From: an uncultured Actinomycetota bacterium
Lineage (GTDB): Bacteria > Actinomycetota > Actinomycetes > Actinomycetales > Cellulomonadaceae
Assembly (NCBI GenBank): GCA_963782165.1
Contig: CAWAIO010000002.1
Coordinates: 148,298-212,297 of the forward strand
Reading direction: 5' to 3'
Length of the DNA: 64,000 nt
Below the pieces are notes generated by a model, which was given only the letters and a program-made list of their open reading frames with translations, was not told the origin of the DNA and did no database searches. Of this stretch, positions 17,254 to 29,136 are shown piece by piece. The position numbers were made by a program, and so were the translations under genes. Numbering within the stretch: position 1 is the first letter of the stretch; each line of letters begins with the position of its first letter.

Positions 17254-18148
17254 TCAGCCGCGCAGTGCGTCGGCCGCCTCGCGCGAGGCCGCCCGTGCCG
17301 CCGCGAGGAGCGAGGCCGCGTCGGGTCCGGCCGCGAGCACGCCGCGCGACGACGACGCCAGCACCTGCCGACGGGCGTCGCCGAACACCGCGGCGAGCTC
17401 GGCAGCGCCCGCGCCCTGCGCGCCGACCCCGGGGGCCAGGAGCGGACCGTTGACTGCCGCCAGGTCCACCCCGGTGTTGCGCGCCGCGTCACCGATGGTC
17501 GCTCCCACGACGAGGCCGATCGACCCAGCGGGTCCGACGCCCGCGTTGAGGGCGGCCGCCTCCGCCGCGAGTGCCGCGCAGCGACCGCCAGCGGACGTCG
17601 GCCCCGGCGCCCGTGCGGGCGTGCTGGACCGAGGCGCCCTCCGGGTTGGAGGTCAGGCACAGCACGAACAGCCCGCGCCCCGTGGCGAGCGCGGCCTCGA
17701 CGGCCGGTGCCAGCGAGCCGAAGCCCAGGTACGGCGAGACGGTCAGCGCGTCGCCCGCGAGCGGCGAGCCGTCGCGCAGGTAGGCGTCGGCGTAGCCGGC
17801 CATGGTCGACCCGATGTCGCCGCGCTTGGCGTCGACGATCGCTCAGCGTCCCGTGCCGGCCCCGTGGCCGCCGCGGCGGCCAGGACCTCCTCGAGCACCG
17901 CGACGCCCGCGGAGCCGTGCCGCTCGAACAGCGCCGACTGCGGCTTGAGCGCAGCGACCGTGCCCGCCCACGGCCTCCACGACCCGCAGGCGCGAACTCG
18001 CGCAGCCCCGTGGCGTCGTCGGGCAGGCCCCACGCCGCGAGCAGGCCCGGGTGCGGGTCGATGCCCACGCACAGCGGCCCGTGGGCGTCCATGGCCGCGG
18101 CGAGCCGCGCCCCGAAGGGCGCGACGGGCCGGGGTCACGGCGGCGCCG

Positions 18149-18152
<4 letters not shown>
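17254..18152 (-). CDS. pyrF: orotidine-5'-phosphate decarboxylase (multiple apparent frameshifts)
   Basis: [57 protein letters not shown]. Confidence 0.93.
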
Positions 18153-21517
<3,365 letters not shown>

Positions 21518-21520
21518 GGC

Positions 21521-22781
21521 TCAGATCTCACTTTCGGAGGACGGGGTGACCGGTGCGGCGTTCGTCGCGGAGCCGGAGGCCCCTGCGGAGTCGCGCATCA
21601 GGTCGAGGAAGCGGTCGAAGAGGTAGGCGGCGTCGTGCGGGCCCGCGGCGGCCTCGGGGTGGTACTGCACCGAGAAGGCCGGGCAGGTCGAGGCACGCGA
21701 GCCCCTCGACGACCTGGTCGTTGAGACCGACGTGCGAGACGACGACGCGGCCGTAGCGCCCGCCGTCGTGCGGGGCGACGGACTCCCCGTCGCGCGGGGC
21801 GTCGACGGCGAAGCCGTGGTTGTGCGCCGTGACCTCGACCTTGCCCGTGGTGCGGTCGAGCACCGGCTGGTTGATGCCGCGGTGGCCGTAGCCCAGCTTG
21901 TAGGTGCCGTAGCCGAGCGCGCGGCCCAGGATCTGGTTGCCGAAGCAGATGCCGAAGTACGGGATGCCGCGGTCGAGGACCGCGCGCAGCAGCTCGACCT
22001 CGGTCGTCGCCGCGCCCGGGTCGCCCGGGCCGTTGGAGAAGAACACGCCGTCGGGCGCGAGCGCGACGATCTGGTCGATCGTGGTCGTGCTCGGCACGAC
22101 GTGCACCCGCACGCCGCGCTCGGCGAGGCGCTGGGGCGTCATGGCCTTGATGCCCAGGTCGACCGCGACGACCGTCGCGACCGGCTCCTGACCGGCGTGC
22201 TCGCCCGAGGGCTCGACGACGTACGCCTCGGGCGTGCTGACCTCGCGGGCCAGGTCCGCACCCGTCATGGCCGGGGCCGAGCGGACGAGCTCGACGAGCT
22301 CCTCCGTGGGACGCGGGTAGCCGCCGCGACGCAGGTCCTCGCCCGAGAAGATGCCCGCACGCATGGCGCCGAGCTCGCGCAGGTGGCGCGTGAGCGCGCG
22401 CGTGTCGATCGAGCTGATGCCCACGACGCCCTGCGCCGCGAGGTCCTCGTCGAGCGAGCGCGTCGCGCGCCAGTTCGAGGCACGGCGCGCGGGGTCGCGC
22501 ACCACGTAGCCGCTGACCCAGATGCGGGTCGACTCGGCGTCCTCGTCGTTGACACCCGTGTTCCCGATGTGCGGAGCCGTCATGACGACGATCTGCCGGT
22601 GGTAGGAGGGGTCGGTCAGCGTCTCCTGGTAGCCGGTCATGCCGGTGTTGAAGACGATCTCGCCGAACGTCGTGCCGCGGGCGCCGTAGGCCAGGCCCGG
22701 TAGGGTCGTGCCGTCCTCGAGGACCAGGACAGCGGTCCGGTCGTCGGCCTGGGCGTCCGTGCTGGGGGTCGAGATGCTCAC
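21521..22781 (-). CDS. carA: carbamoyl-phosphate synthase small subunit (apparent frameshift near 21685)
   Basis: [45 protein letters not shown]. Confidence 0.95.
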
Positions 22782-23342
22782 TGCTGCGGCTCCTTCGAGT
22801 CGTCGTTCGGTGCGCTGTCGGCGGCGGGAAGAAGCTCGCGGACTGCGTTCAGGAGGGTGGCACGGTCGGCGGTCTGCTGGGTCCGCAGTCCAGTATCCAA
22901 GCGTGTGGCGGGCGCGCCGCCGGCGGCCGGGACTGTCCAGGTCAGCACGACGAGGCCGTCCTTGCCCACGTACTTGCCCGCCATCCCGGGGGCCAGCGAG
23001 ACGGCCTCGAGGGCGCTCGCGGCCAGGAAGAGGTCCGGTGGCGCCCTGGCGGGAGACCAGGACCCCGGTGCGGTGCACGGTCACGGTCGCGTTCGACCGG
23101 AAGCCGAGGCGGTGCGCCCCGACGCGGGCGAGCCAGTCCCCCGCGAGCGTGCTGGAGACGTAGACCGCGGTCACGGGGCCGGCCAGGACCTCGCCCAGGT
23201 CGCCCTCGGGGACGGCCGGCGGGGCGGGGACGGTCTGGGCCGTGCGGGTCGTCAGGCGCCTGAGGCCCACGAAGACGACCGCGAGCAGGACCAGGCCGAT
23301 GACGACCCAGATGCCGACCGCGACGGGAAGGGGGAGGTTCAC
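22778..23342 (-). CDS. conserved actinobacterial membrane protein of the pyr operon (Rv1382-like; apparent frameshift near 23035)
   Basis: N-terminal TM helix, [31 protein letters not shown]; typical position between pyrC and carA. Confidence 0.75.
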
Positions 23343-24683
23343 GAGCGGACCCCCACGACCTGCTCGACGGGTGCGCCGTCCAGGACGGTCGCACGCCCGC
23401 GCAGGAAGGTCGCGACGACCCGTCCCGGCAGCTCGGACCCCTGGAAGGGCGTGTTGGTGCTCGCGGTGGCCTGCGTCCGAGCCGTCGACCACGCGCCGGG
23501 CGGCCGGGTCGACCAGGGCCACGTTGGCGGGCTCGCCGACCTCGAGAGGGCGACCCTGCGCCGTCGGGCCCTCGTCGATGCGGCCGATGCGCGCGGGCGC
23601 GGCCGACAGGACGCGCGCGACGTCCGCCCAGGTCATGCGGCCAGAGTCGACCATGGTCTCCTGGACGACGCTCAGCGCCGTCTCCAGGCCCGTCATGCCG
23701 AACGCGGCCGCGGCCCACTCGCAGTCCTTGTCCTCGCGCGTGTGCGGGGCGTGGTCGGTCGCGACGATGTCGATCGTGCCGTCGGCCAGGCCCTGGCGCA
23801 CGGCCTCGACGTCCGCGGCGGTGCGCAGCGGCGGGTTGACCTTGAACGTCGGGTCGTAGTCGCGCGCGAGCTCGTCGGTGAGGATGAGGTGGTGCGGGGT
23901 GACCTCGGCCGTCACGTCGATCCCGCGGCCCTTGGCCCAGCGGATGATCTCGACCGAGCCGGCCGTGGACAGGTGGCACACGTGCAGGCGCGAGCCCACG
24001 TGCTCGGCGAGCAGCACGTCGCGCGCGATGATCGCCTCCTCGGCGACCGCGGGCCAGCCCGCGAGGCCGAGCTCGGCCGACACGACGCCCTCGTTCATCT
24101 GGGCGCCCTCCGTGAGGCGCGGCTCCTGCGCGTGCTGGGCCACGACGCCGTCGAACGCCTTGACGTACTCCAGCGCGCGGCGCATCAGGACGGGGTCGCA
24201 GACGCACTTGCCGTCGTCCGAGAACACCCGCACGCGCGCGGCCGAGTCCGCCATGGCGCCGATCTCTGCGAGATGGTGGCCTTCGAGGCCCACGCTGACC
24301 GCGCCGACCGGGTGGACATCGACCCAGCCCGCGTCGCGCCCGATCCGCCACACCTGCTCGACCACGCCCGCGGTGTCCGCGACGGGGGTCGTGTTGGCCA
24401 TGGCGTGCACGGCCGTGAAGCCGCCCACCGCCGCGGCGCGCGTGCCCGAGACGATGGTCTCGGCGTCCTCGCGGCCCGGCTCGCGCAGGTGCGTGTGCAG
24501 GTCGACGAGGCCGGGCAGGGCGACGAGGCCGGTCGCGTCGACGGCGGTCTCACCGTCCGCGACGGGGCTGCCCGTCGCACGGACCTCGGTGATGACACCG
24601 CCGGCCAGGACCAGGTCGACCGGGGCCGCGCCCAGCGGCGCCGCGCCCTGCAGGACGTAGGTGGTGGTTGGTGGTCTGCTCGC

Positions 24684-24687
<4 letters not shown>
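23339..24687 (-). CDS. pyrC: dihydroorotase (apparent frameshifts near both ends)
   Basis: [46 protein letters not shown]. Confidence 0.94.
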
Positions 24688-26414
<1,727 letters not shown>

Positions 26415-27830: not shown

Positions 27831-28448
27831 CTACCGGAGGAGACCAAGGATCGCTGCGCCGAGGATTCCGGTCGCTCCGGCCCAGATCATCGAGGCCAGC
27901 GTGCCGATCATGAAGCGCTCGGCCGCGACGGGGTGGTCGCGCAGCTCGGGGTAGCGCCCCAGGCCCTTGATCGCCACCACGAACGCGACCCCTGCGGGGT
28001 AGCCGGCGAGCAGGCAGCCCGTGATCGCGAGGCGCTCGAGGATCCCGATCCAGGTGCCGCCCCGCAGGGTCTGCACGGCTTCCTCACCGAGGGGCCCGCC
28101 AGGATCCGACGGCGCCGCGCCGGTCGCGGGGTCGGGTGCGGCGGGCGGGGCGGCCGGGGCCGACAGGGACGACGCGGGTGGCCCGGCAGGCACGCCGCCG
28201 GTCGGCGGCGGCGGCGGGGGGACGGGAGCAGCGCTCGACGCCGTGGCCGCCCCTGCGGCCGGAGCGACGCGGCCGGGCGGCGGAGGGACGGGGCCAGGGT
28301 CATGGGCCGGAGGGGCCTCCCCCTCGATCTCCGAGCGCCGGGCTGCGGCCCGCAGGACCCACGGGGTCACGAGCATCCCGCCCAGCACGCTGAGCACGAG
28401 GGTCGCGACCACGACCCCCGCCACGGCCATCCCTGATGCGAAGCTCAC
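27831..28448 (-). CDS. membrane protein, SatE/DUF3307-like C-terminal module with a Pro/Ala-rich loop
   Basis: N-terminal TM helix, then LRGGTWIGILERL...VAIKGLGRYPEL...AERFMIGTLAS; GTGA overlap with the upstream gene. Confidence 0.75.
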   Translation of the reverse strand: MSFASGMAVAGVVVATLVLSVLGGMLVTPWVLRAAARRSEIEGEAPPAHDPGPVPPPPGRVAPAAGAATASSAAPVPPPPPPTGGVPAGPPASSLSAPAAPPAAPDPATGAAPSDPGGPLGEEAVQTLRGGTWIGILERLAITGCLLAGYPAGVAFVVAIKGLGRYPELRDHPVAAERFMIGTLASMIWAGATGILGAAILGLLR

Positions 28449-29059
28449 GCGTCTGCCTCCTGCAGGAGTCTGGTCACGACCGGCCGGACGGCCGCTTCCT
28501 CGAACCACAGGCTCGCGCGCAGGCGTTGGCTCACGGCCTGCTCGCTGATCCCGAGGTCCCGGGCCACATCCTTCTGGGTGCCACCCACACGCGCGAGCGC
28601 GTCGACAGCCTCCCACCCCGCAGGGGTTCGGCGCGCACCGACCGCGAGCAGGAGCCGCAGGAGCGCCTCGACCTCGCCGGCCGCGGCGGGATCCGGCCCT
28701 TCGACCGCCAACGGGACGGGGCTGCCGCGGGTCTTGGCCCGCTCGACCGCAGCGCGGGCGTGCACGAATGCCGATCCGGACGCCTCGCGGGAGGCCTGGG
28801 GCAGACGCCCGTCAGGGCCGGGCAGCACCTGACCGATGCCGAGGCCCGTGCTCCAGCCTCCCCACCTGCCCAGCGCGAGGACGATCTCCACGACGAGCGC
28901 GGCGTCGTCGAGCACTGCCTGCACCTCGTCGCCGACGGTCCGGTCGAAGGCGATGACGACCCCCGTGCGGTCCTCGTAGGGCGCGAGGCGCTCGAGCAGG
29001 TCCGGCACGAGGTCTCCCCGGCGGGTGCTGGCTCTCTGGTCCACGGTCAGGACGAACAT
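28445..29059 (-). CDS. SatD-like protein: class III nucleotide-cyclase-like domain plus C-terminal HTH
   Basis: MFVLTVDQRAS, RTVGDEVQ, GLGIGQV, SGSAFVHAR; HTH TQKDVARDLGISEQAVSQRL; TACCGT -10 lies 6 nt before the ATG. Confidence 0.78.
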   Translation of the reverse strand: MFVLTVDQRASTRRGDLVPDLLERLAPYEDRTGVVIAFDRTVGDEVQAVLDDAALVVEIVLALGRWGGWSTGLGIGQVLPGPDGRLPQASREASGSAFVHARAAVERAKTRGSPVPLAVEGPDPAAAGEVEALLRLLLAVGARRTPAGWEAVDALARVGGTQKDVARDLGISEQAVSQRLRASLWFEEAAVRPVVTRLLQEADA

Positions 29060-29075
29060 CCCTCCACGGTAGACC

Positions 29076-29136
29076 CTTGACCCATGATCCTCAAGGTCTG
29101 GATCTTGATTCACCCGTATCAAGCCTCCAGGCTTGA
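29076..29136. promoter_or_regulatory. periodic operator-like array CTTGA-N10-TCAAG-N8-CTTGA-N10-TCAAG-N8-CTTGA
   Basis: CTTGA at 29076, 29104 and 29132; TCAAG at 29091 and 29119; immediately upstream of the SatD-like gene -10. Confidence 0.75.

Follow-up and report, generated by a model that had tools for sequence, protein, structure and literature searches.

Two overlapping genes lie between aroQ (PF01220) and efp in an uncultured actinobacterium of the Cellulomonadaceae, one for a protein that joins a cyclase-like domain to a DNA-binding domain and one for a membrane protein (Table 1). Do they form a signalling system for defence, a self-regulated membrane protein gene, or a pair in which one partner restrains the other? 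An earlier note on the window, by which we mean the whole stretch of 64,000 nucleotides analysed here, had proposed an autoregulated second-messenger system with the layout of the anti-phage systems CBASS and Pycsar. The module itself was confirmed: its coordinates, its flanks and the stop/start overlap of the two genes (GTGA at 28445-28448) are as that note had described them, and the motifs that it named are present in the translations of gene 1 (VLTVDQRAS, RTVGDEVQ, GLGIGQV, SGSAFVHAR) and gene 2 (GTWIGILERL, IKGLGRYPEL, ERFMIGTLAS). The feature is genuine; its family is catalogued but uncharacterised, and the partner is here a minimal one. The reading that we prefer, with a probability of about 0.5, is an autoregulated guard pair of the antitoxin/toxin kind, in which SatD, the product of gene 1, would restrain a harmful membrane protein, SatE.

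The closest named homologues come from Oerskovia and Cellulosimicrobium. In G+C content both genes are close to the window, and their GC3 (0.88) is somewhat lower than that of aroQ (0.94) and efp (0.96). In the ORF list of the window, carB, carA/pyrC and pyrB (18135-25700) appear split across reading frames, which suggests indel errors in the assembly (4.27 Mb, 83% complete); genes 1 and 2, unlike these, are intact. A gene for an ATG22/MFS-type transporter (PF11700; 29697-31163, plus strand) is divergent from aroQ.

Table 1. Features of the satD-satE locus, in window coordinates.
Feature	Position	Strand	Basis or remark
Gene 2, short SatE, 205 aa	27831..28448	-	four long hydrophobic helices
Gene 1, SatD-family protein, 204 aa	28445..29059	-	palm/cyclase fold about 1-139, HTH about 149-183
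HTH, recognition helix EQAVSQR	28511..28615	-	HTH models
Gly43-Asp44-Glu45 hairpin, predicted second metal ligand	28925..28933	-	in 117/117 partnered copies
Asp7 codon, predicted first metal ligand, end of strand 1	29039..29041	-	conservation; role predicted from the fold
Operator box 3, 8/10 (2 mismatches)	29063..29080		contains putative -10
Operator box 2, perfect	29091..29108		gene-proximal arm overlaps putative -35
Operator box 1, distal, perfect TCAAG-N8-CTTGA	29119..29136		pattern match

A divergent SatD and a short SatE

The best Pfam match of gene 1 is SatD (PF16264; residues 33-183, 21.7-23.5 bits, E 4.8e-5 at 23.5), which falls below the gathering score of 29 bits, and NCBIfam returned no match above its cut-off. 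Many close relatives of gene 1 are annotated as PF16264, and its D-x3-S, GDExQ and G-x5-AR motifs as well as its HTH align with family members that score above the cut-off. Judged by these sequence comparisons, gene 1 encodes a divergent member of the SatD family, which comprises 2,580 clusters at 50% identity (E <= 0.001). HTH models match residues 149-183, in agreement with the HTH that the earlier note had seen after the gene 1 motifs.

Gene 2 has no Pfam match, including none to PF11750 (DUF3307). However, its profile matches the C-terminal half of DUF3307 proteins adjoining SatD (E 8e-17 to 4e-11) and recovered 4 of 23 PF11750 loci, three of them with SatD; thus, gene 2 is a short SatE without the His-rich half. 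The likeness to SatD/SatE that had been noted earlier therefore extends to both genes, through PF16264 for gene 1 and through this profile for gene 2, and gene 1 is followed by a coupled partner homologous to SatE. Gene order and overlap equal those of the sat operon of S. mutans (SatD, PF16264; SatE, PF11750 DUF3307), whereas gene 2 lacks the His-rich PF11750 half. In many lineages this half is missing or degenerate, and short partners occur outside Actinomycetota as well. PF11750 is absent from 33 aligned short forms, was not found in the host assembly (83% complete), and His motifs are confined to some long forms (44-46 of 73 among the paired loci of other phyla).

What gene 2 retains is a helical core and a species-specific Pro/Ala linker of about 80 aa (residues ~38-120; window about 28090-28335), whose length varies freely among relatives, their proteins being mostly of 115-225 aa. 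A 132-aa form of a relative was predicted to fold into four long helices (pLDDT 93). Structural searches with this model yielded nothing above helical-bundle noise (WbaP, Z 9.0; UBIAD1, Z 8.2), and Foldseek found no match at E <= 0.001. Neither Pfam nor PADLOC detected an S-2TMbeta, CARF or SAVED domain in gene 2, the partner model being all-helical, and the ESM Atlas returned unnamed actinobacterial clusters only. K161, R165 and G182 are invariant in the 117 partners found directly downstream of SatD across the order, and E138, R139, E177 and S186 occur in 115 of the 117. The short partner described here defines a minimal SatE core, made up of K161, R165 and G182, and by the positive-inside rule the conserved charged face of SatE would lie in the cytoplasm.

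The AlphaFold model of gene 1 (pLDDT 94.9) supports the predicted cyclase/palm fold claimed earlier. Comparison of residues 1-139 with 48,161 chains placed the class III cyclase 1y10 first (Z 11.1, rmsd 3.2, 119 aligned), followed by GTP cyclohydrolase III (Z 10.7), GGDEF (Z 9.9), the mCpol domain of Panoptes OptS (9mnr; Z 8.9, rmsd 2.7, 99 aligned) and the uridylate cyclase 8jsz (Z 8.8), scores that point to no single enzyme family. Profile comparison with one mCpol (E 0.7) and with one adenylate cyclase was not significant, there is no Pfam match to PF18182 (mCpol), and a search of PDB sequences returned short stretches only, mostly of the HTH. No Foldseek match of the gene 1 model reached E <= 0.001; its top full-length rows are regulators of the PucR/CdaR type (Rv2242 9f80; 3onq), in which a palm-like domain precedes an HTH, at E values of at least 0.012 and an rmsd of about 14-15 A. 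To our knowledge, such regulators have degenerate sites and no dedicated membrane partner.

As in class III cyclases and PycC, the palm fold is combined with an aspartate on strand 1 and a GD hairpin, and D7 and D44 would correspond to the two metal-binding aspartates if the residue equivalence suggested by the model holds. The hairpin aligns with those of adenylate cyclase and mCpol in profile alignments that are not significant. The motif line-up with the class III palm proposed by the earlier note thus stands for the fold and both aspartates and fails in the Asn/Arg register: the class III pattern G-x-x-V-N-x-A-x-R, for which GPSVNLASR of the host genome's own adenylate cyclase served as reference, contrasts with GSAFVHAR in gene 1, which is one residue shorter, lacks the Asn and has its Arg one residue early, so that the motif has to be corrected to G-x-x-F-x-x-A-R (G95..A101-R102). 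The gene 1 domain is also shorter than that of class III cyclases and PycC. The AKTRG that follows R102 resembles, by eye, AKLRG of one mCpol, to which the profile comparison is not significant. In the host assembly (83% complete) the class III cyclase is single, and no GGDEF domain was found.

These features bear on an alternative in which SatD would act as a one-component regulator, its palm serving to bind a nucleotide or SatE without catalysis, SatE would have an ordinary membrane job, and harm would follow only from its overproduction once repression is lost. The missing class III Asn/Arg and the PucR/CdaR-type regulators at the head of the full-length Foldseek rows, none at E <= 0.001, are in its favour. 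However, the near-invariance of D7/D44, S11, E45, Q47 and R102 looks like that of a catalytic site rather than of a degenerate sensor, and mainly for this and for the pattern of decay described below we consider this alternative rather unlikely.

Joint loss of the acidic site and the partner

Among 301 genomes of the order, the gene 1 profile was found in 147 and the partner profile in 167. After removal of one locus without a match and five duplicates, 153 gene 1 loci were analysed, including that of the window. The partner lies directly downstream in 117, is lacking within ~3.9 kb in 30, and is ambiguous in six, where it has moved nearby or the flank is short. In other phyla 73 of 80 loci are paired, although the GDEF/AR patterns used for that scan favoured intact copies; in Lactobacillales there were matches in 47 of 201 genomes, and of 30 loci analysed 29 are paired. 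Paired records also occur in Haloarchaeal, Agrobacterium, Salinivibrio and Fusobacterium sequences. The two genes co-occur, as the earlier note would have it, and both aspartates are conserved in the order, in other phyla and in Lactobacillales.

Across the order, all 117 partnered copies have D7, S11, G43, D44, E45 and G95, and 95 of them have R40, which aligns with the Lys of KTIGD in the host genome's cyclase (an alignment that is not significant). The full set D7/S11/G43/D44/E45 occurs in none of the 30 partnerless copies; D7 persists in a single one, which carries S11G and G43A, and in all six ambiguous copies. Both aspartates, S11, E45, Q47 and R102 are near-invariant across phyla. The residues of the site decay only upon loss of the partner, and the HTH sequence is retained in the partnerless copies, a pattern that speaks against SatD as a repressor only. 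That the site is invariant only as long as the partner exists suggests that restraint of SatE, or at least a function shared with it, is tied to the acidic site.

On a quick IQ-TREE phylogeny with SH-aLRT support only, the partnerless state needs four changes, all of them forced by starred branches. Two clades, of 11 and 17 members, and two isolated rows make up the partnerless set, and each of the four is surrounded by partnered copies; inheritance looks mostly vertical within families. In 10 genomes with partnerless copies no partner was found genome-wide, with positive controls recovered in 5 of 5. Against the guard reading stand three MAGs that carry an intact SatD and in which no partner was found, one locus in which an intact SatD adjoins a truncated partner, and one genome (G147) that carries an intact-looking partner without SatD.

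The converse state is rare. By hand comparison, 26 of the 301 genomes had gene 1 without a partner match and 46 had a partner without a gene 1 match. A divergent SatD was already on record for two of these 46; the remaining 44 and four further loci were fetched, and in 38 of the 48 an intact SatD, in one case with G43S, immediately precedes the partner, seven had it nearby on the opposite strand and one ~5 kb away. Of the 167 genomes that bear a partner, 2 yielded no SatD: G224, which is complete and has a degenerate K..R motif in its partner, and G147, which is 95% complete and has the motif intact. In terms of events, the asymmetry shrinks to about 4 against 2.

Several variant arrangements were observed. 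Partnerless SatD paralogues of one conserved clade (family f9; L076, L080, L081, L084, L088, L117-L119, L121, L123, L124, L127) persist with D7N and an intact HTH, often with an intact pair elsewhere in the genome, and have possibly been reused as plain transcription factors. In other loci the pair is rearranged, on opposite strands or in reversed order (L215, L224, L226, L230, L234, L237, L244, L069, L151); since these keep the acidic site intact, translational coupling is not required. One Lactobacillales genome (G768) has four PF16264 matches, of which two are adjacent pieces of one copy and one has internal stops.

Operator array and putative promoter

Upstream of gene 1, three TCAAG-N8-CTTGA boxes recur with a period of 28 bp, which bears out the operator array claimed earlier. 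The exact pattern WCAAG-N8-CTTGW occurs in the 4.27-Mb assembly only as the two perfect boxes, as compared to 16 matches of the reversed-pattern control. Matches with two mismatches abound in the window (39, against 6.7 expected), so that the phasing and the perfect copies carry the operator signal. A wider regulon was considered and rejected at the level of exact matches, no exact box being present elsewhere in the assembly.

A strict sigma-70 scan found no promoter site; we assigned the promoter from conservation in 39 anchored loci. In these, boxes are located at -49 and -21 from the ATG, TTGA at -35..-32 and TAnnnT at -12..-7, with A(-11) and T(-7) in 39/39, and these positions relative to the ATG suggest a leaderless promoter covered by the boxes. 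The corresponding hexamers in the window are a putative -35, TTGAGG (29094-29089, minus strand), and a putative -10, TACCGT (29071-29066, minus strand), spaced by 17 bp and ending 6 bp before the ATG; the gene 1 transcript is likely leaderless. The left arms TCAAG are conserved though they lie outside the promoter elements.

Two boxes at 28 bp are found upstream of 60 of the 117 partnered and of none of the 30 partnerless copies (control windows, 1/816 and 0/210), by a score built on the consensus of the own clade, which misses other operator types. In Lactobacillales both loci with a QAVNQR helix carry phased copies of the window's box, a QATNQR locus has one copy, and helices of the SALSKR type go with a different 28-bp-phased palindrome. 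The type of recognition helix tracks the type of operator, a covariation in sequence that argues for binding of the boxes by SatD's own HTH. Autoregulation, a further claim of the earlier note, appears likely, the boxes being unique, phased, overlapping with the putative promoter and matched to the recognition helix. Operators that overlap the promoter and recur nowhere else as exact copies also suit the alternative that SatD is a repressor only.

Restraint or activation of SatE

Transposon data from S. pyogenes bear directly on the direction of control. According to PMC11323703, satD, which 178 of 249 genomes carry, is the only accessory gene that is essential, and operon o_0362 consists of two genes, group_1290, classed as Essential in 9/9 datasets, and group_1858, classed as Non-essential in 9/9, with trmFO as the operon that follows. 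As the order satD-satE-trmFO is found in seven Lactobacillales loci, group_1858 is likely SatE, probably in its long form, unlike the short form described here. When an accessory gene is essential and its operon partner can be dispensed with, it looks like a restraining partner, and this, together with the partner-dependent site, leads us to favour the guard pair. However, autorepression by itself could produce the same 9/9 versus 0/9 pattern, which is a further point for SatD as a repressor only; derepression alone might account for the essentiality, as might cold spots of transposon insertion.

According to the guard reading, an HTH dimer of SatD would bind the boxes that overlap -35 and -10 and thereby repress its own promoter. 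D7 and D44 would bind metal and NTP, as D6/D57 in Panoptes OptS, and SatD would either transfer a nucleotide to SatE or make a small one for the invariant, presumably cytoplasmic K161/R165/E177 face of SatE to bind. Without input from SatD, SatE would damage the membrane or growth; nucleotide depletion, stress or phage are candidate triggers of its release.

The model for this logic is Panoptes, for which the accessible part of PMC12657218 describes D6/D57 of OptS as catalytic and a constitutive OptS product as restraining the toxic OptE. Like Panoptes, the pair combines a minimal, synthase-like palm that has two acidic residues with a membrane partner, and by analogy the synthase would be needed because the partner is harmful. 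Unlike Panoptes, gene 1 carries a fused HTH, lies behind an operator array and does not match PF18182, its partner has no S-2TMbeta, CARF or SAVED effector domain, and the pair is embedded among housekeeping genes and common (147-167 of 301 genomes), whereas mCpol occurs in 1 of 301. In one genome (G005; L184, 1474-2608) a 128-aa mCpol (PF18182) precedes a 279-aa ORF whose C-terminus is hydrophobic, an arrangement like that of Panoptes; this genome also carries a SatD/SatE pair.

Pairs of the MNT-HEPN type are autoregulated toxin-antitoxin systems with an enzymatic antitoxin. The present pair would share with toxin-antitoxin systems the antitoxin-first order, the stop/start overlap, and an HTH and palindromic operator on the antitoxin side; the S. 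pyogenes data add the transposon pattern of an essential antitoxin and a dispensable toxin. It differs from MNT-HEPN pairs in that the fold is a palm and not that of polymerase-beta, and in that the partner is a membrane protein and not a nuclease. By analogy, then, the pair would work most like Panoptes or an enzymatic toxin-antitoxin system, while it falls short of membership in Panoptes, CBASS or Pycsar. Its stable placement among housekeeping genes is unlike that of most toxin-antitoxin or defence modules. One observation from a plasmid may be added: on an Agrobacterium pAt plasmid (NZ_CP011248.1; L277, 3007-6195), a pair with a short partner adjoins an annotated antitoxin and a nucleotidyltransferase-HEPN gene.

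A CBASS- or Pycsar-like anti-phage function, in which infection would switch the cyclase on and its product would activate the membrane effector, was the analogy drawn by the earlier note. The layout of synthase and membrane protein, the uridylate cyclase 8jsz among the fold matches (Z 8.8) and the intact site that travels with the partner agree with it. Such a system, however, predicts a dispensable cyclase, contrary to the essential satD of S. pyogenes with its non-essential operon partner, and an inverse, restraining logic fits the data better. The genomic surroundings are also those of housekeeping. Among 759 neighbouring ORFs from 100 loci (called by a simple codon model; 269 clusters), the 40 largest clusters are mostly pyrB, efp, nusB, aro genes, IF-2, rbfA, tyrS and ispG, and since these are housekeeping genes, phage defence gains no support from them. 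PADLOC matched 8 of 150 neighbour representatives (150 of the 269 clusters scanned), mostly by generic ATPase, helicase and oxidoreductase models plus two PDC candidates, and gave no meaningful match for gene 1 or gene 2 beyond short HTH stretches. Thus, the suspected proximity to defence islands was not observed, and neither was a CD-NTase or PycC model match. Phage records yielded no match for either SatD query, and plasmid records few (1 and 11). We regard an anti-phage system of this kind as very unlikely.

The same neighbourhood suits another alternative, namely that SatD and SatE together form a housekeeping enzyme or signalling unit that serves membrane or stress physiology and involves no toxicity; the invariant Lys/Arg of SatE might, for example, complete an active site or recognise the product. 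Any shared function would account for the joint loss of site, partner and operator, and inheritance looks mostly vertical within families. Papers that link the sat operon to acid tolerance do so second-hand, as far as their accessible text goes; PMC10326533, PMC13492114 and PMC12077213 repeat the label from the S. mutans operon. This alternative nevertheless leaves both an essential satD with a dispensable partner and the rarity of partner-only genomes unexplained, and we deem it improbable. The sat operon is said to have been associated with acid tolerance by Kremer in 2001, and the label of SatD derives from operon context alone. Our literature search, which covered cyclase, toxin-antitoxin and palm among freely accessible papers, found no functional study of SatD, in line with the statement of the earlier note that SatD/SatE have no established biochemistry.

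Taken together, new here are the partner-dependent site of SatD, the rarity of partner-only genomes and the link to the S. pyogenes transposon data. A more far-reaching form of the guard reading, which we put forward only tentatively, is that of a very widespread guard system in which an HTH-fused palm synthase constitutively makes a nucleotide, or nucleotidylates an invariant Lys of SatE, and in this way holds a four-helix membrane toxin shut; equally tentatively, the enzyme would control its own transcription and SatE would present a new nucleotide-sensing face. If true, the pair would be the equivalent of Panoptes on a housekeeping scale, in archaea as well as in bacteria, and depletion of the nucleotide pool or of SatD would cause it to kill or stall the cell. 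Should the guard reading as such hold, it would reveal a new family of palm-fold synthases, a new family of membrane effectors and possibly a new nucleotide signal, in a system present in about half of the sampled genomes of the order and in many phyla, and it would explain a published puzzle, namely why S. pyogenes has a single accessory gene that is essential.
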